This document shows positions 3,308 through 28,936 of a stretch of DNA of 42,103 nt, in pieces (position 1 is the first letter of the stretch; each line of letters starts with the position of its first letter). The notes beneath the pieces were generated by a model, which saw nothing but the letters and a program-made list of their open reading frames with translations, ran no database searches and was not told the DNA's origin. The stretch spans positions 1 through 42,103 of IMG/VR virus record IMGVR_UViG_2675903468_000011, one strand, 5' to 3'. Source of the DNA: a virus. Taxonomy: Duplodnaviria > Heunggongvirae > Uroviricota > Caudoviricetes. A program made the translations under genes and the position numbers.

Positions 3308-3969
3308 GCCCCTACATCAAAACCACTGATAAATTCGTTATCCATATCAAAACCAAAAAATTTTGAACCTTCCGATGGAGTTTCCACCGAAGGTGTTTCA
3401 ATGCCACCCGCCCATACCCCGGCGGCTTTAACTGTGAGATACCCCTGTTTAATTGCCGCAATTAACTCACGCGATACATCTGAAATATCAGTATCAGGAA
3501 AGACCCAGACCGATATCGTCATGTCCTGGTTATCGACTATCTGCATTCGCAGCCCGGATCCTGCTGTTGCAGCGTCAAGAATTGCCGGAAGCGAATCATT
3601 CCGTCCATCCCAGTTATTAATCGCAATCTTCGCTTTAAGAATGACACGATAAGTTTCATCGCTGAGGTACATGTATCCGGAATCAGGATCGTATGGTCCC
3701 TGCCATACCCCCTGATCATATCCAAGCCCGTCGGTATCCCAGCTGAAATAGACACCTGAAATAGGCTGGCTGACAACACGGCTACGTCCGATCCACAATC
3801 CCAGAATGTCAAGTTGCACACCAACCGCAGAGTCAATATCAAATGCAGTAATCAGCCCGCTGGTGGCAGCCGCAACATCAATAAGCGGCCGGGTCATCAG
3901 ATCAACATGTGCAAGAAATTTAGGTTTGGTGGCGTGGTAGTTCGTGATTAGTTCGGTGTATTTGCTCAT
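3289..3969 (-). CDS. Baseplate/tail protein, Mu gp48 / YmfQ-like
   Basis: 226 aa, in conserved position between baseplate J-like gene and tail fibre gene; start overlaps upstream gene stop. Confidence 0.5.
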
Positions 3970-5165
3970 GACTCCACCGTTATAACGATATTTTCCGGGG
4001 TACAGGACGCAGATTCGTTATATCTGATATCAATGTTTGATGGCGACAAAGCCCCCGGGGATTTCCCAATCGTCAGTTCCTGAATATCGTAATAGCGTGC
4101 ATTCCCGCCACTCACCACGCCAAGATTTGCCGGTGAGTAAATGCGACTCAAAAGGATCGAATCACCAATCGTCAGACTATTGATATAGTCGGAAATAGCC
4201 TGCTGGATCTGCTGCCCTATCTGTGAGGTATAACCCGTAAAAACTTTTAATTTGATCTGGGCATAAACAGGTACATCACTGGAACGCGAGAACTTGATTA
4301 CATGGGGATTGCCGTATTTATCCGGAACCGTAACGGATGTTGTACCGTGAGTGGCTGTCCCCTGACCTTTATTCCCTCTGATAGCCTGAGCAATATCCGT
4401 CACATCACCGCCATCCACAATCACAGCAACAGAGTGTGGCGGTAACCCGTTACCGTCCTCCGAACCAGTATCATTTTCATAGAGTTTGTGGCGTGTTACA
4501 CCGGCAACATTAGAAACAGCACCATCCAGTGCTTCAAATGGGGTTATTGATGGCAACGCAACACTTTGCGACTGGCGGATACGTAACTCCGCATCAGTTT
4601 CTGCCGGAGTGCCCACAGTGGCTGCAGCAGGATTGGTTACCGAAACCCAGCCACGGGTTGGCGTATTAATTTCAGTGATAGTTCCAGCCAGCGCCGCCAC
4701 TGCACCACTGACGGAACATGTTGCGGTCACCATCACTGTACCATCCACGCCTACCACCACTGAAGCAGGCAAACGCCATATCACATTATTACTGTCTTTC
4801 ACGCTGCCATTAATGATGGTTGTTCCGGCAGTTCCTGTAAGAAGCAAATCAACCGTAGAGTTCGTCGCGCCTTTACGTGAAATACCATTTATTTTCACGT
4901 TACTGGTCAGTGCAGCCCCATAGCCGGTTGCCGGTGAAAAACAGTTGTAGACAGTTATCGCCGTATTATTGGCATCATGAATCGCCAGCGCCATCAGAGC
5001 CACCATCTGGCCGTCTTTGCTGTCCGGTTCGAGGTAGGCATCACTACCATAAATCTGCTGAAAATAGCTAATCAGGGTGCTGAGTATCGTCTGATAATCA
5101 GGCGCACTGATCCCCTCCGCGGTTACCTTTGCAGATAAACCGAGAGAATCAAGGTTCAGAGCCAT
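3966..5165 (-). CDS. Baseplate J-like protein (Mu gp47-like)
   Basis: 399 aa; size and position typical of baseplate J family; translationally coupled to neighbours. Confidence 0.65.
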   Translation of the reverse strand: MALNLDSLGLSAKVTAEGISAPDYQTILSTLISYFQQIYGSDAYLEPDSKDGQMVALMALAIHDANNTAITVYNCFSPATGYGAALTSNVKINGISRKGATNSTVDLLLTGTAGTTIINGSVKDSNNVIWRLPASVVVGVDGTVMVTATCSVSGAVAALAGTITEINTPTRGWVSVTNPAAATVGTPAETDAELRIRQSQSVALPSITPFEALDGAVSNVAGVTRHKLYENDTGSEDGNGLPPHSVAVIVDGGDVTDIAQAIRGNKGQGTATHGTTSVTVPDKYGNPHVIKFSRSSDVPVYAQIKLKVFTGYTSQIGQQIQQAISDYINSLTIGDSILLSRIYSPANLGVVSGGNARYYDIQELTIGKSPGALSPSNIDIRYNESASCTPENIVITVES

Positions 5166-5518
5166 TACGCCTCCGATGTAACAGTCGTTATTCCATAAAG
5201 AGTGTCGATTTCAGCGGAAAACATGACACGTCGGGTCGTGGTATCCACCGTCGTATTGAAAGAGAGGATTGATTTAACGCCCTGCGTTTCCAGAATGCGC
5301 TTACGGATCGCCAGGTTGTAGGTTTCCGGCTTCTGCCTGCCCAGCACGGACTGGATCCATGGAGTCCCTTCGGTGGTGTCGAGAAACCATTGCCCATACC
5401 ACAATTCGAATCGCGTTTTTACCGCCTGCGCCACGGCCTCCGGTGAGTTAATCAGCCAGGTGTCATCACCGCTGCCAAAGGTGTAATCACCATCGGCGTC
5501 TTCACGTCTGTATCGCAT
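5165..5518 (-). CDS. Baseplate protein, GP46-like (gpW-like)
   Basis: 117 aa; start overlaps upstream stop; conserved position between spike and J genes. Confidence 0.55.
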   Translation of the reverse strand: MRYRREDADGDYTFGSGDDTWLINSPEAVAQAVKTRFELWYGQWFLDTTEGTPWIQSVLGRQKPETYNLAIRKRILETQGVKSILSFNTTVDTTTRRVMFSAEIDTLYGITTVTSEA

Positions 5519-6270
5519 CAGTTTACCCCATCGGTATTGCTTCCACCGCGCTGAACACCGCCATGAGTGTGCGTATCATCGATTGGCTTGCCGTTAGCCT
5601 TAACGCTCCCCAAGAACTCAACAGCACCAGTGATTTTTGAAGCCACACCAGAAACAACAGACCCCACCATGCCCCCCATCCAGGTTAACAGGCCATGAAT
5701 GGTTACTTTCTCAGAAAAGTCAGCCAGAGGGGCGACCACATCAAGCCCCCCGGGAGCGACAATTTTAATTTTCCGGGTATCAGGATTAAGCTCAAAATAG
5801 GTGCTGCCGTCATCACTACGCAACTGTGTGGCACTGGTATTAATACCGCTAATCTTCCTTGCCTGCGACTGGGGACCGACAATACAAAACGCATCCGATA
5901 AATCATGCATTCTGTCATCGACCGGCTCCTGTATCCCGCCGCTCTGCCACCAGAAATCAATACAACGATCGGCAAAAACGACAAGACACTCATTCCCGGC
6001 TTTAACCGGAAAAGTCAACGTACAGCCTCCGCCGCGCGGAAATACCACCGGCACATCCACCAGCAGGGGTAATGTCGTCGACTGGTTGATTCCATTTGAG
6101 TCCGGCTCATAGCCTTTAATCGCAGGTTGAACAACTACCGTTACCGTGTCCGGATCAAATGACTGGACAATTCCGGGCATAGAAACACGCAGCGCCGACA
6201 TGACAGAACCAGCAAGTCTTACATCGGCCTGTTCTTTGCTACCAAGTTGAGCGCTTAAAGAAACGGGCAT
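5518..6270 (-). CDS. Baseplate assembly/spike protein (gpV / Mu gp45-like)
   Basis: 250 aa; Gly-rich; C-terminal H-x-H (DDTHTHGG) as in phage spike tips. Confidence 0.55.
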   Translation of the reverse strand: MPVSLSAQLGSKEQADVRLAGSVMSALRVSMPGIVQSFDPDTVTVVVQPAIKGYEPDSNGINQSTTLPLLVDVPVVFPRGGGCTLTFPVKAGNECLVVFADRCIDFWWQSGGIQEPVDDRMHDLSDAFCIVGPQSQARKISGINTSATQLRSDDGSTYFELNPDTRKIKIVAPGGLDVVAPLADFSEKVTIHGLLTWMGGMVGSVVSGVASKITGAVEFLGSVKANGKPIDDTHTHGGVQRGGSNTDGVN

Positions 6271-6293
6271 TCATATGTCTCCAGAAAGTAAAA

Positions 6294-6313
6294 AACCCGC
6301 CGGGTAGCGGGTT
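6294..6313 (-). terminator. Hairpin plus U-run terminator on minus strand
   Basis: ACCCGC-CGGGTA-GCGGGT hairpin; on the minus strand it is followed by TTTTTT. It sits just upstream of the baseplate spike gene, inside the late operon. Confidence 0.5.
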
Positions 6314-6387
6314 ACTGATCAAATATCAGGGTGTTTAATGCATATTTTATGGATATATTGCAATGGTATTTTCGATAAGGAAAAACC

Positions 6388-6843
6388 ATGCTTAATCATG
6401 AAGATCCACGCACAGCTTTAATTGATTTTTTGAAAAGCATTCCGCAAAACCTAAGAATAGATGAATACCTCTTCATTATTCTCATGTGTTGCGGTGAAAA
6501 CCCGCCGGAGGATTTAGACGATTTCGAACCAATCGTTGAGAAATATCTAAGCCGAACAGGATACGCTGGTTTTGGCGCTGTTATTTGCACCATAGCCATA
6601 CTGGAGCGTAGGTTATCAAGTGTAATGTTAAAACTGGAACGAGCTGAGGAGTCGTTGAAAGCATTATCTAATGAGAACGCTGATTTCTCTCAATATCCGC
6701 TGCTAAGCATGCCTCTGAAAAAGCGGCAATATGCTCAGGTTGTTGAGCGCTGGAGAGCTCTCTTACGCGGTGCGCTATCTGCTGAAAACCTTGCTTATTT
6801 CGAACAAAATCCGCAAGCGTTATCACTGGTGACAAAAGAATAA
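6388..6843 (+). CDS. Hypothetical protein (moron, opposite strand to tail operon)
   Basis: 151 aa ORF with AAGGAAAAA ribosome-binding site; low-GC; bracketed by hairpins; no recognisable domain. Confidence 0.5.
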   Translation: MLNHEDPRTALIDFLKSIPQNLRIDEYLFIILMCCGENPPEDLDDFEPIVEKYLSRTGYAGFGAVICTIAILERRLSSVMLKLERAEESLKALSNENADFSQYPLLSMPLKKRQYAQVVERWRALLRGALSAENLAYFEQNPQALSLVTKE

Positions 6844-7010
6844 AATCCCGAACTTCTTCATCTGTCATTTGCATCTCTCATAAGTTTGAGTGTAAGAAAC
6901 AATCGTTCTGCTTAAGTGCCTGCCTTCAACCAGGCACTTCTTGCACGGGAAAGAGCCAATAACTTTCGGCGCATCCATGCTGTTCTGCAGAAGCTGGACG
7001 CCAATGTAAT

Positions 7011-7319
7011 TCACTTCACCTTCCGGCAATCATACGTCCAGAACTCCCGAGGCTCGTCCATATTTTTGCGGATAACTTCAACGTTGAGGATCGCTTTTTT
7101 GTTTCGTTTGATGTAGTCCATACCTAACCAACGTCCAGTATTAGGATCAGGTAACATCCATTGCATCATGACATTATCGAAATCGTCTTTTTGTTTCAAA
7201 AAGGTCATTTTTTGTGTTTCTGGCTTTTGACCATTGATGTGCATGAGGCCATCATTACCAGCATCAAAGCGGAATGGTCCGCACTGCGTTGCCGCCGAAA
7301 CTGTTAACGGCAGGGCCAA
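7011..7319 (-). CDS. Small secreted protein; 5' end ambiguous (possible frameshift in A/T homopolymer)
   Basis: Track ORF uses TTG start (MALPLTVSAATQC...). An upstream GTG (7345) followed by an A6 run would give a canonical signal peptide MKK(S/V)IFCLFLALPLTVSAATQC only if the A-run were one base longer. Confidence 0.45.
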   Translation of the reverse strand: MALPLTVSAATQCGPFRFDAGNDGLMHINGQKPETQKMTFLKQKDDFDNVMMQWMLPDPNTGRWLGMDYIKRNKKAILNVEVIRKNMDEPREFWTYDCRKVK

Positions 7320-7341
7320 GAATAAACAAAAAATACTTTTT

Positions 7342-8376
7342 TCACTCTACATCTCCGACTTTGTCCAAAGTGCCTTTTGCCAATAGTTCTTTGCCACCTT
7401 TAGCCAGGCAAAGCAGGTCCATATACCACGCCTGCCCTCGGGTGTCGCCAGTATAATCAATGCTGCCCACAATGTAATCACCGTCAGTATTAATGCTGGC
7501 AGGCTGTGACATGCCTGGCAGACCGTTAACGTAGAGATTACCGTCGCTTTCAGACTCATCCAGTCGTGCTGGCGATTTCGCTACCTGGTCATTACTCAAA
7601 GAGGCACGGTATACAGATGCCTGATCCAGACGAATAAGCCCACCGAGCTTAATATTTGGATTAATCAGACATCTGACATTTACGCCAGCTCCCATCGTCT
7701 GCTGTGGCATACCGATAAGCCCGGTGTTAGCATTCAACACCGTAGCAACACCAATATATTTATCTTCAGGAACAATATTTACCAGATTATTTTCATACCA
7801 CCAGTTAGCCTTACACTGCCCTGCGATATGATTCATCAACCTTGATGTGTTTTGATAAACAACGCGACCCCGGGGAAATACCGTTTCAGGCATGTCAGGA
7901 ACTGCGCCGGATTCGATGCCATATGGTTCGAATGATTTCATACCCAGACTGAAAAGATCTCTGTACTTCCAGCCAGCTGCCACTGTGGTTTTCACACTTG
8001 CGTTCAGGTGGCCTTCCCAGCTGTCAATACACTGCAACATGATCCAACTGTCTGTGGCATTATCTTTACCAGTGACAGTAAAACGGATATCTCCATTGAA
8101 TATCATACCAACGTTTTCATCAGGATAATTACCTGCTGCATCCGGTTGCCCCTTGTATCCGGCAATAACCTGTATACGCGAAAACTCCTTCTGCATAATC
8201 CGGTTCTGAGTGGTAGGGGACAGGTTATAAACCTTAAAATTCCCAACGAATCCATTGAATATGGTCGCAGGCATTTTCTGAATATTGAAAGTGACTTTAA
8301 GCTCAGAAATTTTTATCCCGTCGCCCTTATCATCAACAAGCAATAATTCAAAGTGACGCATCCAGTTTTTCGACAT
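7342..8376 (-). CDS. Baseplate hub / tail protein (Mu gp44-like)
   Basis: 344 aa; position between tape-measure-proximal genes and baseplate genes; assignment by synteny and size. Confidence 0.5.
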   Translation of the reverse strand: MSKNWMRHFELLLVDDKGDGIKISELKVTFNIQKMPATIFNGFVGNFKVYNLSPTTQNRIMQKEFSRIQVIAGYKGQPDAAGNYPDENVGMIFNGDIRFTVTGKDNATDSWIMLQCIDSWEGHLNASVKTTVAAGWKYRDLFSLGMKSFEPYGIESGAVPDMPETVFPRGRVVYQNTSRLMNHIAGQCKANWWYENNLVNIVPEDKYIGVATVLNANTGLIGMPQQTMGAGVNVRCLINPNIKLGGLIRLDQASVYRASLSNDQVAKSPARLDESESDGNLYVNGLPGMSQPASINTDGDYIVGSIDYTGDTRGQAWYMDLLCLAKGGKELLAKGTLDKVGDVE

Positions 8377-8378
8377 TG

Positions 8379-8681
8379 TTACTCCGTGAAAACATAGAGG
8401 TGTGAGAGCGTTCCAAGATCGAATTGCGTCGGATTCTCCTGCCCTGCCACGTCGCAGAGCACCACCAGAGAAAAACCCAGATCCATATATCGATACTGTG
8501 CCAGCAGGTCAGCCCCCGTAATCATCGGTATACCTGATATAATGGCGGAGCCATTGCTGTCAGCAAGATCCAGAACCCAGTACTCGCCTCGCCAGATGAC
8601 AGACAGGTGATAAACCGAACCGTTAATTGTGGTGGCAAAAGTCTGATTGTCAGCAACCAGTGGGATTTCTACGGCTTTCAT
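8379..8681 (-). CDS. Tail protein, hypothetical
   Basis: 100 aa ORF tightly packed in tail operon. Confidence 0.4.
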   Translation of the reverse strand: MKAVEIPLVADNQTFATTINGSVYHLSVIWRGEYWVLDLADSNGSAIISGIPMITGADLLAQYRYMDLGFSLVVLCDVAGQENPTQFDLGTLSHLYVFTE

Positions 8682-8684
8682 GAA

Positions 8685-9338
8685 TCACCTTCCCAGAAAT
8701 AAATTGCTCAAATACCCATCAACAGTGGAGATACCTTCTTGCGCCATCTGTGGCAGCGATTTCAGAATGGAATTATTCGGCGGCACCGTTGTTTTGGTGC
8801 CTGTATTCTGCACAGCAGACGTTCCGACTCCCTCGGTCATATTGTTTTTCGGGGCAACCCTGACTGACTGCGTGGAGGTAATAATTACTTCCCTGAGGGT
8901 AAGTGTCGCCAGAAGCACATTTTCACTACTCTTATCGGTCGTGACCTCCAGCGTTTTTATCAACATATTGTTGTAAATACGCTTGCCGGTTGTCACATCG
9001 AAAGGAATACGATTCCGCTGCAGGTTAAGCAGTTCCTGATACAGTTCTTTCGGGCTCAGCCCCAGTAAACTGGTAGCAGTCAGGTTACTGGCAAAATCAA
9101 GCAGCGATCCGCCTCCGGAAAAACCGGTTTCCATCACAACCTCAGAAGGGCGCCTGAATGCGTGTTCTGATATATAACCAGCGCCCTCACCACTGGCACC
9201 AGCATTCGTGGGCTGTTCAACCGGATGTTCCGTAATTTCCAGGGCGTCAGTGTGCTTTTCGGTAATAACCACATCAGGAATAATGATTCCTATTGAGCGG
9301 GTTCGCTGCTGCAGTAAAACAGATAAAAAGTCCATCAC
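8685..9338 (-). CDS. Tail protein, hypothetical
   Basis: 217 aa ORF immediately downstream of tape measure gene, overlapping its stop. Confidence 0.4.
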   Translation of the reverse strand: MMDFLSVLLQQRTRSIGIIIPDVVITEKHTDALEITEHPVEQPTNAGASGEGAGYISEHAFRRPSEVVMETGFSGGGSLLDFASNLTATSLLGLSPKELYQELLNLQRNRIPFDVTTGKRIYNNMLIKTLEVTTDKSSENVLLATLTLREVIITSTQSVRVAPKNNMTEGVGTSAVQNTGTKTTVPPNNSILKSLPQMAQEGISTVDGYLSNLFLGR

Positions 9339-11362
9339 GCAGGCCCTTTCAATTGCTGTACCGCCCTGGCATTTACAGCCCCCTGCTTGTCAGCAATCAG
9401 ATTAGCCGCCTCCTGAGGGTTGTTAACTCCATGAACATTTATAACAGTCTGCTGGTTAAGGCTGCCAGCGGCGGCCTGATACGCCAGCGGGCTGTTCCAG
9501 TTTGAATAACCTTCTTTGCGCGCCATCGACTGCATCAATGCTCCCATAGTCCGGGGATCTGTAAGATTCAATATTGCATTCGGTGATACTCCCATCCATT
9601 TCGCAACATCCTGTGCATACTTTTTCGGATCGTTGTTATCACCTGCCGGGGCCCAGGTACTGACAATATCCTGAATAGTCTGTAATGCCCGTCCGGTTGT
9701 TTTCCCGGTAAAGTAACGCATGAGCTGGTTTTTCATCGCCTCCCAGCCCTTAAGCGCTGATTCGAAAAACCGGAACCCTTTACCGCTCACCGGGCGAATG
9801 TTCCCGGGGTTATTGTTGCGATCAGCAAGAGTGCCGCCGCCGGGGATGTCGGGCTGGACGTTGGAGCCATGCACTACACCGTTACTCTGTCCCTGCCGGA
9901 TAACTTTACCGGGTCCACCGTGCAACCAGTCCATCCACGCAGGCCATTCACGGACCTCACTGACATCCCTGCGTCCGATATCTGTTTTTATACCAATAGC
10001 AGCCAGCGTGTCGCCGATAATTCGCTTCGTATACCTCAGTGAAGATTTTGCGCTATCGGCAATATTTTCTCTGTCACTAACAATATAGCCCGCGTAAAGC
10101 GCCCACAATTTAAGCCAGGGTGGGACCGGTAAACCTGATATTTTTCCGAAAGCCCCCAGAACCTTGGATACCCAGACACCCGCGATGAATGTACCGAGGA
10201 TTTCCAGTGCATTTTGCCAGCCGCCAACACCATCTTTTAGTTCCAGAAGGTGATCACGAAGCCAGGTGATCGCATCCTTCGCTTTATCTATTGCCGGTTG
10301 CCATTTTTCCCAGTCGATAAGGCTGTTACCGCCTTCTTTCCATGTTTTGTAGTCTTCCCACAAGAGACCGAGAGCCACGATCAGACCAGTAATCAGCCCT
10401 ATAGGTGACATCCAGAAAGTAGAGTTAAGTATCCGCATGGCGACAACCAGACCGCCGATAACCTCTATCAGGGTTTTCGTTTCGGCATCCAGTTTCCCCC
10501 ACCACTCGATGATATCTCCGACACCATCGACTATCCGAAATGCAACCCGCCCGACTATCTCACCCAGCCAGAAGATCCCCTTTATGACCTTTGTGATGGT
10601 GACTTCAATTTTGGGAAAATTTTCAATTATCTTTTTGCGCAGGTTATCAATCTGCCCCGCCAGTCCGTCCGCAAGATTCGATCCGATTTTGTCCCGCGCC
10701 ATCCCGGCCATTTCACCGAGCGATTTCAGCGAGGTCATAAACCGGTTTGACGATAAGGCAGCCTGATCGGCATTAAATCCGATCGCTTTCACCATTTCTG
10801 AATACTGAGCGCTGAACTGCCCCACACCACGACGCATGGCCATCAGGGTATTTTCGTCAATGCCCAGCATCTGCGCATACTGGTTAGCCCGGTAATACGG
10901 CATGCTGCTGAGTTTCTGTCCAACGCCCGTAAAAATAGCGGCCATGTCACGCATGTTACCGCTGGCATCACGGGTCTGTACGCCCAGGCGATTCAGAAAG
11001 CCTTCTGCACCGGGATTGTTACGAATAAACCGGGAGAGGCTTTCCAGAGAAGATCGCGCAGCGTCCACGCTGCCGCCAACCTGCGAAACCGCATAGCCAA
11101 TAGACTGAATTCCCTGGACTGTCGCGCCGGTGCGCTGTGACGCCCAGTAAAGATTATCCAGGCCGGAGGCGATCTTAGCCGTGAAGGCCACCACGGACAA
11201 CGCAGCTCCTTCAACGGCCAGTCCCATTTTGATGACATTTGCAGTTGTACCGGCGAGGACAGAACCGAACTTTTTCGCTCCTGCATCATCCACACTGAAG
11301 CCAAGCGAGACGAGGAAATCTTTAATAGTTTCAGCGTTCATTATCCTCTCTCCATTTCTCAA
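9335..11362 (-). CDS. Tail tape measure protein
   Basis: 675 aa; Ala/Gly-rich helical N-terminal half, central hydrophobic segments (LIEVIGGLVVAMRIL, IGLITGLIVALGLLW); follows chaperone gene with frameshift extension. Confidence 0.8.
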   Translation of the reverse strand: MRNGERIMNAETIKDFLVSLGFSVDDAGAKKFGSVLAGTTANVIKMGLAVEGAALSVVAFTAKIASGLDNLYWASQRTGATVQGIQSIGYAVSQVGGSVDAARSSLESLSRFIRNNPGAEGFLNRLGVQTRDASGNMRDMAAIFTGVGQKLSSMPYYRANQYAQMLGIDENTLMAMRRGVGQFSAQYSEMVKAIGFNADQAALSSNRFMTSLKSLGEMAGMARDKIGSNLADGLAGQIDNLRKKIIENFPKIEVTITKVIKGIFWLGEIVGRVAFRIVDGVGDIIEWWGKLDAETKTLIEVIGGLVVAMRILNSTFWMSPIGLITGLIVALGLLWEDYKTWKEGGNSLIDWEKWQPAIDKAKDAITWLRDHLLELKDGVGGWQNALEILGTFIAGVWVSKVLGAFGKISGLPVPPWLKLWALYAGYIVSDRENIADSAKSSLRYTKRIIGDTLAAIGIKTDIGRRDVSEVREWPAWMDWLHGGPGKVIRQGQSNGVVHGSNVQPDIPGGGTLADRNNNPGNIRPVSGKGFRFFESALKGWEAMKNQLMRYFTGKTTGRALQTIQDIVSTWAPAGDNNDPKKYAQDVAKWMGVSPNAILNLTDPRTMGALMQSMARKEGYSNWNSPLAYQAAAGSLNQQTVINVHGVNNPQEAANLIADKQGAVNARAVQQLKGPA

Positions 11363-22235: not shown

Positions 22236-22808
22236 TTAGCCCATTATTTTTCTATACGCCTCTGCAGCCTGCTCCGGCGTTAAGTTGGTAATTTCTGTTC
22301 TGACTGGTCCTCCATCAGCGCCAGTCACTTCATTTTTGACGTTGTCTTTAAACGCCTGAACAGAAACATGACGCCCAAGCAACTCAAGGTTTTTAACCTT
22401 ATCAGGCCACTTAATCTTTTTAAGGATCCCGACCATTTCTCTGTCATCTCCTCGCCCCTCAAACATTTCAGCGAGGTTAAATCCACTCAGGTACCGACGC
22501 CACGATTCCGGCCACGCAGACAGAGGCTTAATACTTAAATCGTCCTCCAGGATGTCAGCCACATCGAGCCTGTCGATCTCAACCAGTCGCATCAGCACAT
22601 AATTCGCATCAATGCCCAGTTGATCAATACGCTCCTGCTTTAGCTCGTTGATGCGGGCGCGTATCTCAGGTTTACCGTATAGTTCAGCCCCCGTAACATG
22701 TGCTCGCCTGGAGGCGTAGCCTGCGCGAATAGCTGCTTGTGTAGCATTAAGATCGACAAGAAACTCGCGACAAAACACCTCGTGTTTTGCTTTCAGCTTC
22801 TTAGTCAT
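22236..22808 (-). CDS. Terminase small subunit
   Basis: 190 aa; N-terminal motif [33 protein letters not shown] typical of small terminase DNA-binding domains. Confidence 0.75.
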
Positions 22809-23857: not shown

Positions 23858-24199
23858 TTACTCCTTCGAGCTACCAAATTTGTTACCGATTACTCGCATT
23901 GCAGCCCCACGAATAGCATCGACACCGATCAGCCCCACGCCACCACCAATGGCAACAGAAAGCGATTTAGGCCATCCGACATACTCAAGAGCGGATGCAA
24001 AGGTCAGCGTCAGTGCGCCGCAGAGCAAAATCTCAAGCGTTTTTCGTTTCCAGCCGCCGCCACCGCCAAAATAGGCAATGCGCAAACCAGCCATAACAAT
24101 CGACATAACCACTGCGCCCAACGGCGTATCTCCACGCCACCAACTTTGTAAGAGTTCCAGTAAGTCAGGCCAGGAATGAGGAGCATTGTGCATTTTCAT
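23858..24199 (-). CDS. Holin (class I, lambda S-like) with dual-start motif
   Basis: GGAGGTG Shine-Dalgarno upstream of ATG-AAA-ATG (Met-Lys-Met dual start); three hydrophobic segments; directly upstream of endolysin. The track start at 24217 is probably too long. Confidence 0.75.
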   Translation of the reverse strand: MKMHNAPHSWPDLLELLQSWWRGDTPLGAVVMSIVMAGLRIAYFGGGGGWKRKTLEILLCGALTLTFASALEYVGWPKSLSVAIGGGVGLIGVDAIRGAAMRVIGNKFGSSKE

Positions 24200-24473
24200 A
24201 CTTCCCACCTCCGCCATTACGGGGTGTTGTTGAAAGGCGGGCCCTGCGTATACGCCCGTAGGATTGGGTTATGAGCCGTCCTTCGGTGGGCCCTGAATAC
24301 AAAAAAAAGTTCGCCATAGCGAACCTTGTTAAATTTGTTAAAAAAGAAGGTTATTTAACATAATGTACGTTATAGGAACCACACGATCACCGCTCGCAAT
24401 AGATTTGCGATGAAAGGCCTATTTAATCAACTTAAGTGGTCCAGAATGGCGAAATTCGAGTGAATAAAAGGTG

Positions 24474-25018: not shown

Positions 25019-25441
25019 TTATGCCGCCGAGCAGCTCCTACGCAAAGTCCTGATAGCCTGAGGCTTTGACTGAACCGACTGATCCATTTCGAGCACCACA
25101 TCCAGCATGGCTAAGCAACCGTCAATAAATCCCTCTGCCGCCTGAAGCCTCTTCAGAACGTGGGTGTGAGATACGCCGAGCTTCTCACCCATCGCCCGCA
25201 CGGGCATGGCCTGGACGTAATGCCACTCAAGGAGCGTGCACAGATACGGATCTTTTTTCTTCAGGCAGCTCATAGCGGAGCTGATGATAAGACCGTCATT
25301 GTCACTGCATTTCAGCCTTCCAGACTGCGTCGCGGGTAGCAGATTCTTAAACCCGGCTGCAACAGGAGGAAAGTAGACGCTACCACCTTCACTCGCTGCC
25401 CAGCCTCCCCAGCGCTCTAAAACCTGTTGAATATTACGCAT
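25019..25441 (-). CDS. Late-gene antiterminator Q-like protein
   Basis: 140 aa; N-terminus MRNIQQVLERWGGWAA... and Cys-containing central region resemble the phage antitermination Q family; position upstream of lysis genes. Confidence 0.65.
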   Translation of the reverse strand: MRNIQQVLERWGGWAASEGGSVYFPPVAAGFKNLLPATQSGRLKCSDNDGLIISSAMSCLKKKDPYLCTLLEWHYVQAMPVRAMGEKLGVSHTHVLKRLQAAEGFIDGCLAMLDVVLEMDQSVQSKPQAIRTLRRSCSAA

Positions 25442-28261: not shown

Positions 28262-28936
28262 ATGATTGATACTACCGATATCCTTTCTCAAAACATCAAG
28301 TACCTGATGGACAAAGCCAAGATAAGCTCGATAACTGAGCTGGCACGTCGGTTACAGCTGAACCAACCAACGCTACACAGGCTGGTATCAGGAGAGGTGA
28401 AAGATCCGAAATACGTAACGTTAAAGCAGATCGCCGACTACTTCCACGTGTCACCAATAGACCTGGCAGAAAGGAGCCTTCAAGAAATGGAGAAAGAGGA
28501 CGCGACAGGTATAAAAACGTATATTTCTCTTAGGTTTAATAAAGTACCTGTTTTGGGAAACACTCAGCTAGGCGTTGGAGGACTTTGGAGCGACACCCAA
28601 TATTCAGTAGGTAGCAGTGATGGTTTCATATACTGGCCGACAAAGGATGAAGATGCATACGCCCTGAAATGTGTTGGTGATTCAATGATGCCTAGAATCA
28701 AAGAGGGTGAGTTCGTAATCGTCGAACCCAACCACGACTACACTCCTGGTGATGAAGTACTTGTGGTTACCCGGGACGGTGAGGTCATGGTTAAAACCTT
28801 CTTGTTCGAACGCGATGGCCTGTTCCATCTAATGTCTGTAAATGAAGATCATCCACCAGTCAGAGTACCACGCGAAAACATTGAAAAAATCCATTACGTG
28901 GCGGGGATCGCCAAATCCGCGCTACGCATGTACTAA
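28262..28936 (+). CDS. CI-like repressor (HTH plus S24 LexA-type autopeptidase domain)
   Basis: 224 aa; N-terminal HTH (ITELARRLQLNQPTLHRLVSG); C-terminal S24 motifs GDSMMP (Ser nucleophile) and downstream Lys (EVMVKTF). Confidence 0.85.
   Translation: MIDTTDILSQNIKYLMDKAKISSITELARRLQLNQPTLHRLVSGEVKDPKYVTLKQIADYFHVSPIDLAERSLQEMEKEDATGIKTYISLRFNKVPVLGNTQLGVGGLWSDTQYSVGSSDGFIYWPTKDEDAYALKCVGDSMMPRIKEGEFVIVEPNHDYTPGDEVLVVTRDGEVMVKTFLFERDGLFHLMSVNEDHPPVRVPRENIEKIHYVAGIAKSALRMY

Follow-up and report, generated by a model that had tools for sequence, protein, structure and literature searches.

A frameshifted small gene coupled to the baseplate hub gene, a variable cargo slot and a conserved terminator in the late operon of an Escherichia coli prophage

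The DNA analysed here (the window) is a stretch of 42,103 nucleotides, IMG/VR record IMGVR_UViG_2675903468_000011, which belongs to an E. coli prophage. The element is a temperate myovirus that has lambdoid regulation and a baseplate of E217/Pam3 type. On its minus strand lie a baseplate hub gene of 344 aa (7342..8376; PF22759 E217_GP41, 1.4e-07; phrog_196 'baseplate hub', 9.9e-80) and a membrane-puncturing spike gene of 250 aa (5518..6270; PF18352, 5.9e-44, plus a GpV Apex motif). The two genes are separated by a gap of 1.07 kb with 42% GC. A reading of the sequence alone had noted about 1 kb of low-GC DNA here, and this DNA is indeed present, with 42.4% GC over positions 6271-7341; the values are 51.3% for the spike gene, 50.7% for the late operon and 45.3% for the hub gene. 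The GC drop is real and modest, and it has no sharp edge toward the hub. All features named in the sequence-only reading exist, either exactly where it put them or a few bases away. I found that the interval is not a single island but three juxtaposed elements: a gene for a small secreted protein, a cargo slot, and a terminator. All three are ordinary prophage features, and none of them is a proven on/off switch. No nucleotide match to the island was found in a search of 50,697 phage records. ST64B and SfV were rejected as identities of the prophage, since neither turned up in the set of phages that encode the small protein.

The small gene (7011..7345, minus strand) matches phrog_3443 (1.8e-47) over profile positions 8-114 of 115. 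It encodes 111 aa when intact and is frameshifted in the window. Its GTG start codon (7345-7343) is preceded by a GGAG Shine-Dalgarno sequence 7 nt upstream, and the TGA stop codon of the hub gene overlaps with this GTG (GTGA). Is this arrangement common among relatives? In the E. coli relatives, the hub stop and the small-gene start overlap as GTGA or ATGA, and intact homologues are annotated as genes of 111-113 aa overlapping the hub stop. In the isolated phages Mulock, vB_EcoM-683R1 and ST340-VIM1phi10.1, whose small proteins are 28-76% identical, the gene order is hub, small protein, variable gene(s) and spike, and the start of the small gene lies right at the hub stop or a few bases past it. 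Even the isolated phages with only 28-33% identity carry the small gene after the hub gene. It was found directly after the hub gene in every relative examined, isolated phages included. The small gene is not a recent moron, since it overlaps or adjoins the hub stop and comes after the hub in all relatives examined; the presence/absence pattern of a moron is not seen for it. A consensus scan detected no promoter for the small gene inside the hub gene. The protein has 134 homologue clusters, and the named ones all belong to Enterobacterales. Translational coupling of the small gene to the hub gene is therefore probable, as is a long-standing place of the small gene in the baseplate module.

In the in-frame alleles, the N-terminus consists of MKK, VFFCLFLALPLTV and VSA|A, which is the layout of a Sec-type signal peptide. 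The same layout, as well as two invariant Cys residues, was found in 38 of the 38 aligned homologues, and the in-frame protein is predicted to be exported to the periplasm. One UniRef member is named 'Lipoprotein'. This assignment was rejected because the lipobox [LVI][ASTVI][GAS]C is missing; the invariant Cys lies 3-4 residues past the AXA site and is preceded by T-Q, T-S, M-Q, M-K and similar residues. An AlphaFold2 model of the small protein (pLDDT 89.5) is an 8-stranded beta-barrel, whose nearest fold class would be the small 8-stranded up-and-down beta-barrels (avidin/streptavidin-like and others). A Foldseek search against viral models gave zero matches at an E-value of 0.001 or better. 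Pfam, NCBIfam, PADLOC and PDB sequence searches with the small protein and with the 151-aa protein encoded in the cargo slot gave nothing usable, and profile, sequence and structure searches found no functional annotation for either. The suggestion that the small protein is a lysogenic-conversion factor has no evidence behind it. A role of the barrel in envelope modification or superinfection exclusion is a best guess only.

Llp of phage T5 and Cor of phi80, N15 and HK022 are envelope proteins encoded in tail modules, and they block superinfection. Like them, the small protein has an N-terminal export signal, lies among tail and receptor-binding genes and would not be expected in the virion. 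Llp and Cor are lipoproteins, whereas the phrog_3443 protein has no lipobox and is dissimilar to them in sequence and fold; the likeness goes no further than analogy. A conserved, predicted-exported protein within the baseplate module points to superinfection exclusion or envelope remodelling as questions.

The minus strand of the small gene reads GTG (7345-7343), AAAAAA (7342-7337), GTA, TTTTTT (7333-7328) and GTT. The A6 run (7337..7342) directly follows the GTG; the sequence-only reading had put it at 7335-7340. The T6 run (7328..7333) comes three bases after the A-run. These two runs make up codons 2-7 of the gene, and a change in the length of either would switch the frame. The window is A6T6, while the in-frame states are A6T7 and A7T6, and thus the peptide read from the GTG is out of frame and stops after 13 codons (VKKVFFVYSWPCR*) at the TAA at 7306-7304. 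With A7 in place of A6, translation from the GTG would yield MKKSIFCLFLALPLTVSA|ATQC. An extra T in the T6 run equally restores the frame. The remainder of the protein is the predicted 102-aa TTG ORF on the minus strand (7319-7011), which does exist. Its start, MALPLTVSA, has zero charge and a stretch of only 9 residues, which does not qualify as a signal peptide; the ORF has lost the charged n-region along with half the hydrophobic core. The claim that a signal peptide lies one base out of frame with the GTG therefore stands, and the proposed A7 repair exists in nature (MKKSIF...), with the T-run as an equal candidate. Since A6T7, not A7T6, is the in-frame allele seen most often in E. coli, the lesion may lie in the T-run (7328-7333). 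It is likely that the 102-aa TTG ORF and the RefSeq 107-aa protein with an ATT start are artefacts of a frameshifted 111-aa gene, which is of value for annotation.

Is the missing base real? No assembly error is commoner than the miscall of a single base in a homopolymer, and the true genome might be A6T7 or A7T6 with an intact gene. The off-state complete genome ET650 also has a frameshifted spike gene, hinting at low homopolymer accuracy in that genome. However, the Logan assembly of run SRR2070769, which may come from the same isolate as the window, agrees with the window at 100% over 6,080 nt, A6T6 included. A6T6 is also common to a clade of assemblies from different projects. Moreover, short reads resolve homopolymers of 6-7 nt accurately, and the runs are well within that range. 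A sequencing or assembly artefact is therefore improbable, and the best reading of the frameshift is a genuine loss-of-function mutation that is inherited and lies at a site prone to slippage. The loss of one base in the tandem homopolymer pair would have inactivated the small gene in this genome.

The sequence-only reading suggested looking for variation of the A-run in homologous prophages. Such variation was found, namely A5, A6 and A7, along with T6, T7 and T8 in the second run. A6T7 (MKKVFF...) is the majority in-frame allele of E. coli; its 111-aa protein is present on at least 1000 contigs, and A6T7 is the tract state in 25 of the 26 complete E. coli genomes with this allele, in 13/13 IMG/VR contigs and in 6/6 metagenome contigs. 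By exact protein, the TTG 102-aa call is found on 16 contigs, the ATT 107-aa call on 10, and the E. coli MKKSIF protein (P0016, A7T6) on 3; the A7T6 state in E. coli is deduced from this protein sequence together with the A7 DNA of Salmonella. The Salmonella allele is A7 at the DNA level, and its T-run is interrupted (TTTTGTG). The tracts are 6-7 nt long in the E. coli and Salmonella alleles, A5 being seen in two E. coli assemblies and the maximum, T8, in two off-state assemblies. The off-states A6T6, A5T7 and A6T8 are recurrent in several backgrounds and rare. In one clade (L009, L012, L016 and L018, with about 10 similar places), A6T6 occurs together with a common hub deletion, and thus the off-state there was inherited. 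In a tree built from the flanking DNA, off-states are interspersed with in-frame sequences, and they are accompanied by three cargo types. This suggests several independent off events, although the neighbour-joining tree is poorly resolved at about 99% identity and supports them only qualitatively. The series A7T6, A6T6 and A6T7 may represent a compensated double frameshift whose intermediate is still circulating. It was also observed that the recurrent variants A5T7, A6T6 and A6T8, together with the two in-frame states, fit a contingency locus.

Slipped-strand phase variation would mean that the tandem A and T runs are a reversible, selected switch and that the window was caught in the off position. 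The tracts lie immediately behind the start codon, their natural variants cover A5 to A7 and T6 to T8, and the scatter of off-states over the flank tree and three cargo types speaks for several independent events. A6T7 (MKKVFF) and A7T6 (MKKSIF) are linked via A6T6, so that the off-state must have been restored to the on-state at least once in evolution. Of the 20 homopolymers of at least 6 nt in the 21-kb late operon, 4 lie in the small gene. On the other hand, useful homopolymer switching needs about 8 or more repeats, as in contingency loci of Haemophilus, Neisseria and Campylobacter, and the tracts here have 6-7. Among loci that were not selected for frame, 44/45 are in frame and 1/45 is off (the complete genome ET650), and overall only tens of contigs have off-state calls, compared with at least 1000 in frame. 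The abundant Salmonella allele has the interrupted T-run. The neighbouring hub, plug and spike genes of the same prophage set have other one-off indels, and N-terminally truncated forms of the small protein with starts further downstream (62, 65, 77 and 92 aa) are on record, which together fit general decay. Since recurrent tract-length variants do exist, the phase-variation idea comes out weakened; a dedicated on/off switch finds little room with tracts of 6-7 nt and 44/45 loci in frame, and I consider it unlikely.

A literature search on homopolymer phase variation in E. coli prophages found nothing on this locus. Homopolymer phase variation in Neisseria, Haemophilus, Campylobacter and Bordetella takes place at simple-sequence contingency loci (PMC1891110, PMC5084427). 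The present locus resembles them in having homopolymers near the 5′ coding end of a gene for a predicted-exported protein and a natural polymorphism of tract length. It differs from them in its short tracts (6-7 nt), its rare off-state and its host, E. coli. The states A7T6, A6T6 and A6T7 fit the path of a two-tract switch in E. coli and Salmonella prophages. It is very unlikely, in my estimation, that the pair is a contingency switch in which either run rescues the other, with the barrel as a new envelope-acting factor in Enterobacterales myoviruses. If this were true, the barrel would be, for example, a superinfection-exclusion or receptor-masking factor that was unrecognised before.

Could the A6T6 gene still give full-length, exported protein, so that it is attenuated and not off? 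Recoding might come from transcriptional slippage or from a -1 ribosomal slip, either on G-AAA-AAA-G or on TTT-TTT, and a -1 shift on either run would recreate exactly MKKSIF... or MKKVFF.... In E. coli, Lys-tRNA is known to shift readily on A-runs (dnaX). However, the site has no downstream stimulatory structure or properly spaced internal Shine-Dalgarno sequence, the heptamer register is wrong for an efficient A-AAA-AAG shift, and no more than a few per cent of product could be expected. Since nearly all relatives encode the protein in a single frame, recoding is not a conserved programmed event. A programmed frameshift at the A/T runs was rejected on these grounds of conservation and register, and the chance that recoding explains the window is very small indeed. 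Thus, a heritable frameshift in a conserved gene is the preferred reading for the small gene.

Downstream of the small gene, the cargo slot (6314-7010) has 41.9% GC versus 50.7% in the late operon. It holds a plus-strand gene of 151 aa (6388..6843) that is antisense to the late operon and encodes an all-helical orphan protein. This gene, which the sequence-only reading had proposed, is real and conserved: it matches phrog_26342 (6e-89), is annotated in RefSeq as WP_057781012.1, has homologues that are 55-99% identical, and has an AAGGA Shine-Dalgarno sequence 8 nt upstream. In relatives, the slot is occupied by DUF4282, by genes of 257+126 aa or 243+142 aa, by Arc/Arc/antirepressor, by Arc/Bro-N, or by Phd+Fic. 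Similarity to loci with other types of cargo is lost at 6313 and at 6926-7011. The gene is replaced in relatives with otherwise collinear flanks, and the base composition of 6314-7010 is unlike that of the surrounding operon, both of which are marks of a moron. The description of the whole interval as a moron island hence fits the 151-aa gene, which occupies a variable cargo position, and is wrong for the small gene, which follows the hub in all relatives examined. In annotation, the 'island' should be treated as two things, an operon member that is conserved and a genuine cargo slot.

A consensus scan found no sigma-70-like site in 6314-6387, where the AT-rich DNA may hold a weak or non-consensus promoter; the only nearby plus-strand promoter match (6430-6458) lies inside the 151-aa gene. 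Between the convergent 151-aa and small genes, folding revealed a 9-bp stem-loop (6914..6939; -16.5 kcal/mol, z = -2.6 on the plus strand; -17.9 kcal/mol, z = -3.1 on the minus strand). It follows the 151-aa gene, has a U-run on neither strand, and is found only in the 151-aa cargo version. Morons of lambdoid phages were reportedly described by Juhala et al. in 2000 and by Hendrix and colleagues. The 151-aa gene is similar to them as extra, lower-GC DNA in the late operon, with other genes there in relatives and a terminator-bounded junction at its end. It differs from them in that no promoter was identified for it and that its own 3′ hairpin has no U-run. A further parallel is the immI region of P22 (arc, mnt, ant) in the late operon, since the relatives' slot holds Arc-family repressors and antirepressors; such cargo is absent from the window.

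The slot ends at an intrinsic terminator on the minus strand (6284..6313; AACCCGC-loop-GCGGGTTTTTT), which was found by a scan and supported by folding and conservation. The hairpin (6313-6294), a feature that had been recognised in the sequence beforehand together with its U-run, has an 8-pair stem with 5 G-C pairs and a 4-nt loop, followed by a T-run. The sequence AACCCGCTACCCGGCGGGTTTTTT (minus strand, 6313-6290) folds at -12.5 kcal/mol (z = -3.2). It lies 14 nt upstream of the Shine-Dalgarno/ATG region of the spike gene, the first gene downstream, and forms the downstream border of the cargo slot. The stem, the T-run and the spike RBS are kept across all cargo variants and Salmonella, whereas the loop differs (TACC, CACC, CTTCGA and CGTCGA in E. 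coli and Salmonella with different cargo).

How are the genes behind the terminator transcribed? At the head of the late operon lies a Q-family antiterminator gene (25019..25441, minus strand) matching the full PF06530 Phage_antitermQ profile (4.3e-42). A tR'-like intrinsic terminator (24306..24327, minus strand), a 9-pair stem followed by TTTTTTGTATT, lies between the Q gene and a holin gene (23858-24217, PF05106). With a Q gene in the phage and a tR'-like terminator following it, one may soundly infer that Q-modified polymerase reads through, and the earlier idea that the genes after the terminator depend on Q is consistent with this arrangement. In a lysogen, the terminator may keep transcription of the cargo or small gene from running on into the spike, wedge and fibre genes; once the prophage is induced, Q-modified RNA polymerase would read through it. 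The arrangement resembles the lambda Q/pR'/tR' system: a strong terminator stands between a Q-family gene (PF06530) and the lysis genes, and one long co-oriented late operon has an internal terminator. The likeness covers the Q gene and the terminator; the tail module here differs from the lambda type in being contractile and of E217/Pam3 type.

In summary of the locus, the reading I consider probable joins a conserved, hub-coupled gene with a frameshift, a recombinational cargo slot and a conserved terminator. The slot would be bounded by the 3′ end of the small gene and by the terminator. Current understanding is not overturned by these findings. The small proteins form an Enterobacterales-wide, uncharacterised beta-barrel family, predicted to be exported and coupled to the hub in temperate myoviruses including Klebsiella and Escherichia phages. 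The site between the small gene and the spike gene appears to be a recombination hot spot that gathers toxin-antitoxin, immunity and orphan genes.

The late genes of this prophage are all on the minus strand of the window, and prophages of E. coli chromosomes are nearest to it in DNA sequence (97-99% identity). A Q-family antiterminator gene (25019-25441, minus; PF06530, 4.3e-42), a strong terminator-like hairpin with a 9-pair stem and a T-run in the Q-holin gap (24327-24306, minus), and the holin gene (23858-24217, minus) show the classic lambdoid Q/tR′ layout, here joined to a contractile-tail phage; the small terminase gene lies at 22236-22808 (minus). The head genes lie 3′ of the small terminase, followed by the contractile-tail module, whose minus-strand genes encode a tape measure that includes a lytic transglycosylase domain (9335-11362), a Dit-like protein (8685-9338), a Pam3-gp18-type plug (8379-8681), an E217-gp41-type hub (7342-8376), the spike (5518-6270), then a 117-aa protein (5165-5518), homologues of which match the sheath-initiator family, and finally Baseplate_J (3966-5165). 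On the plus strand are a CI-like repressor gene (28262-28936) and, behind an ORF ending at 507, a G+C-rich palindromic hairpin, AGCCCGCGCTGCGGGCT, with a T-run (506-522).

The hub-spike interval is unremarkable for a prophage, combining three features of known kinds: an accessory gene inactivated by a frameshift, a hot spot for cargo and a presumably insulating terminator. Each element listed in the sequence-only reading (a 151-aa ORF, a hairpin, a TTG ORF and a GTG frame) was found, and the low GC content holds (42.4% for 6271-7341 vs 51.3% for the spike and 50.7% for the late operon), although the hub itself has just 45.3%. By direct reading, GTG AAAAAA GTA TTTTTT GTT lies 5′ of the minus-strand TTG ORF (7011-7319), the GTG overlaps the TGA of the hub, and its frame reaches a stop after 13 codons. 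As predicted, one extra A after the GTG yields MKKSIFCLFLALPLTVSA followed by ATQC, with the A-run at 7337-7342 rather than 7335-7340. The proposed repair of A6 to A7 is backed by the exact MKKSIF... protein, recorded on three contigs and, judging by adjacent accession numbers, adjoining the same 151-aa protein, and by the abundant Salmonella allele (1175 blocks), where GTG A7 GT ATT TTG TGT encodes MKKSIL. However, near-identical E. coli prophages differ from the window in the T-run (7328-7333), not in the A-run: GTG A6 GTA T7 GT gives MKKVFFCLFLALPLTVSA followed by ATQC (WP_000755137.1, 111 aa). With alleles named by their A- and T-run lengths, the A6T6 of the window may come either from A7T6 by loss of one A or from A6T7 by loss of one T. 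The simplest history would run from a Salmonella-like A7 through A7T6 and the out-of-frame A6T6 to A6T7, and the E. coli majority allele would therefore be a compensated double frameshift whose intermediate is naturally segregating, a mildly interesting by-product. One related prophage (L025) has the cargo of the window and A6T7, yet is merely 98.3% identical to it. The 335-nt gene (7011-7345, minus) has four 6-nt homopolymers (7095, 7208, 7328 and 7337); the 21-kb late operon has 20 in all. In the frameshifted gene, PGAP called an ATT start (WP_057781014.1, 107 aa; L006 1542-1865) and other annotations call the 102-aa TTG ORF; both are probably artefacts of one 111-aa gene.

The secreted protein was assigned to phrog_3443 (1.8e-47), and a homologue search returned 134 clusters, those named being from Escherichia, Salmonella, Klebsiella, Citrobacter, Enterobacter, Kosakonia, Erwinia, Pantoea, Pectobacterium, Rahnella, Rouxiella and Rosenbergiella. 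All 38 members in the alignment (110-121 aa) have an MKK-type signal peptide, an AXA-like cleavage site, an invariant Cys-Gly pair close to the start of the mature protein and a second invariant Cys close to the C-terminus; no lipobox was found in them. The gene lies 3′ of the hub in every examined relative from E. coli and Salmonella, overlapping the hub stop or starting a few bases on, and likewise in the isolated phages Klebsiella Mulock (28% identity), Escherichia vB_EcoM-683R1 (33%) and Klebsiella ST340-VIM1phi10.1 (76%). This placement rules out a recent insertion, and of the proposed moron island only the 151-aa gene, in its swappable slot, remains. The alleles are mosaic. Relative to the related prophages L001 and L002, the segment 7097/7138-7386 is swapped for a divergent cassette and the 3′ end hardly differs; the segment spans the last ~15 hub codons, the signal peptide and the first two thirds of the predicted barrel. 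Across L001, L002 and L019-L028, the cassette (7097-7386) has ~60-65% amino-acid identity, with near-identity in the last ~26 codons and the flanks. Such a pattern is suggestive of recombination, or of diversifying selection acting on this half of the protein. The best guess, made purely by analogy with T5 Llp and Cor, is an envelope-acting role, e.g. exclusion or receptor masking. This uncharacterised, hub-coupled family of predicted exported barrels is a further by-product of mild interest.

How common is the off-state? In three samples unselected for frame, A6T7 was found in 25 of 26 complete E. coli genomes with this allele (the other, ET650, has A6T6), in all 13 IMG/VR contigs and in all six metagenome contigs. 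A look-up of the exact 102-aa product, deliberately selecting out-of-frame states, listed 33 blocks; the tracts were A6T6 at five loci, A5T7 at two and A6T8 at two, with three cargo types, dispersed across the tree of the flanking DNA. Sequencing error is an unlikely explanation: ET650 also has a spike gene annotated as frameshifted (L006, 2304-3055), reflecting either prophage decay or homopolymer errors in assembly, but a Logan contig (run SRR2070769) reproduces 6,080 nt of the window, A6T6 included, at 100% identity, and the A6T6 state is inherited, since the members of one A6T6 clade have a hub 3′ deletion in common. Independent single-base deletions, one at ~position 2950 in L009, L012, L016 and L018 and another at ~position 1517 in L005, lie within the last 12 hub codons and give a 342-aa hub; one of them is the deletion of the A6T6 clade. 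Most off-state cases are real, and the state recurs, yet it is rare (tens of contigs vs at least 1000 in frame). Since the tracts are just 6-7 nt, neighbouring genes carry other sporadic indels and shortened small-protein forms with later starts are recorded, a hot spot for slippage, located in a gene dispensable in the lysogen, fits better than a maintained contingency switch, and phase variation is improbable. Leaky recoding of the frameshifted gene is less probable still. The frameshift is probably a real inactivating mutation; the original observation was confirmed and its interpretation was partly right.

The antisense 151-aa gene (6388-6843, plus) is genuine: it has a full-length match to phrog_26342 (6e-89), and RefSeq genomes annotate it. 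Its homologues are few (9 clusters, 55-99% identical), with a protein-like conservation pattern. It has a good Shine-Dalgarno sequence ahead and a 9-bp stem-loop lacking a U-run behind (6914-6939); a consensus promoter scan detected none. The protein is modelled as a helical bundle (pLDDT 83) with no informative structural neighbours. A perfect 5-bp palindrome, CTGAT-caaat-ATCAG (6315-6329), upstream of the gene, starts one nucleotide past the base following the terminator stem base at 6313 and could be an operator, or nothing. Against prophages with other cargo, homology ends at 6313 and at 6926-7011. Their slots hold DUF4282, two hypothetical genes (257+126 aa or 243+142 aa), Arc/Arc/P22-type antirepressor, Arc/Bro-N or Phd-Fic; the Arc-family repressor and antirepressor cargo resembles an immI module. 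In Salmonella and E. coli, the slots of L052/L054 (1917-2737), L053 (1843-3336) and L007 (1891-3081) carry either a pair of Phd-like antitoxin and Fic-domain protein or Arc-family repressors alongside Bro-N or P22-type antirepressors. In E. coli Br_112_kylling (L028), the spike and the 151-aa gene are separated by an inserted IS4-like (ISVsa5 family) transposase (1562-2770), which has cut the spike to 220 aa.

The hairpin and T-run before the spike (6313-6294, minus) form the sole clear canonical terminator within the tail part of the operon. The stem, the T-run and the spike ribosome-binding site are identical across all cargo variants and Salmonella while the loop differs, which argues for selection on the hairpin. 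Behind co-oriented cargo (DUF4282, Fic), it lies directly 3′, as a moron-type terminator; with the inverted cargo of the window, it stays as a conserved border. Since the spike, wedge and fibre genes lie 3′ of it and the phage has Q and a tR′-like terminator, Q-dependent readthrough would be the economical inference.
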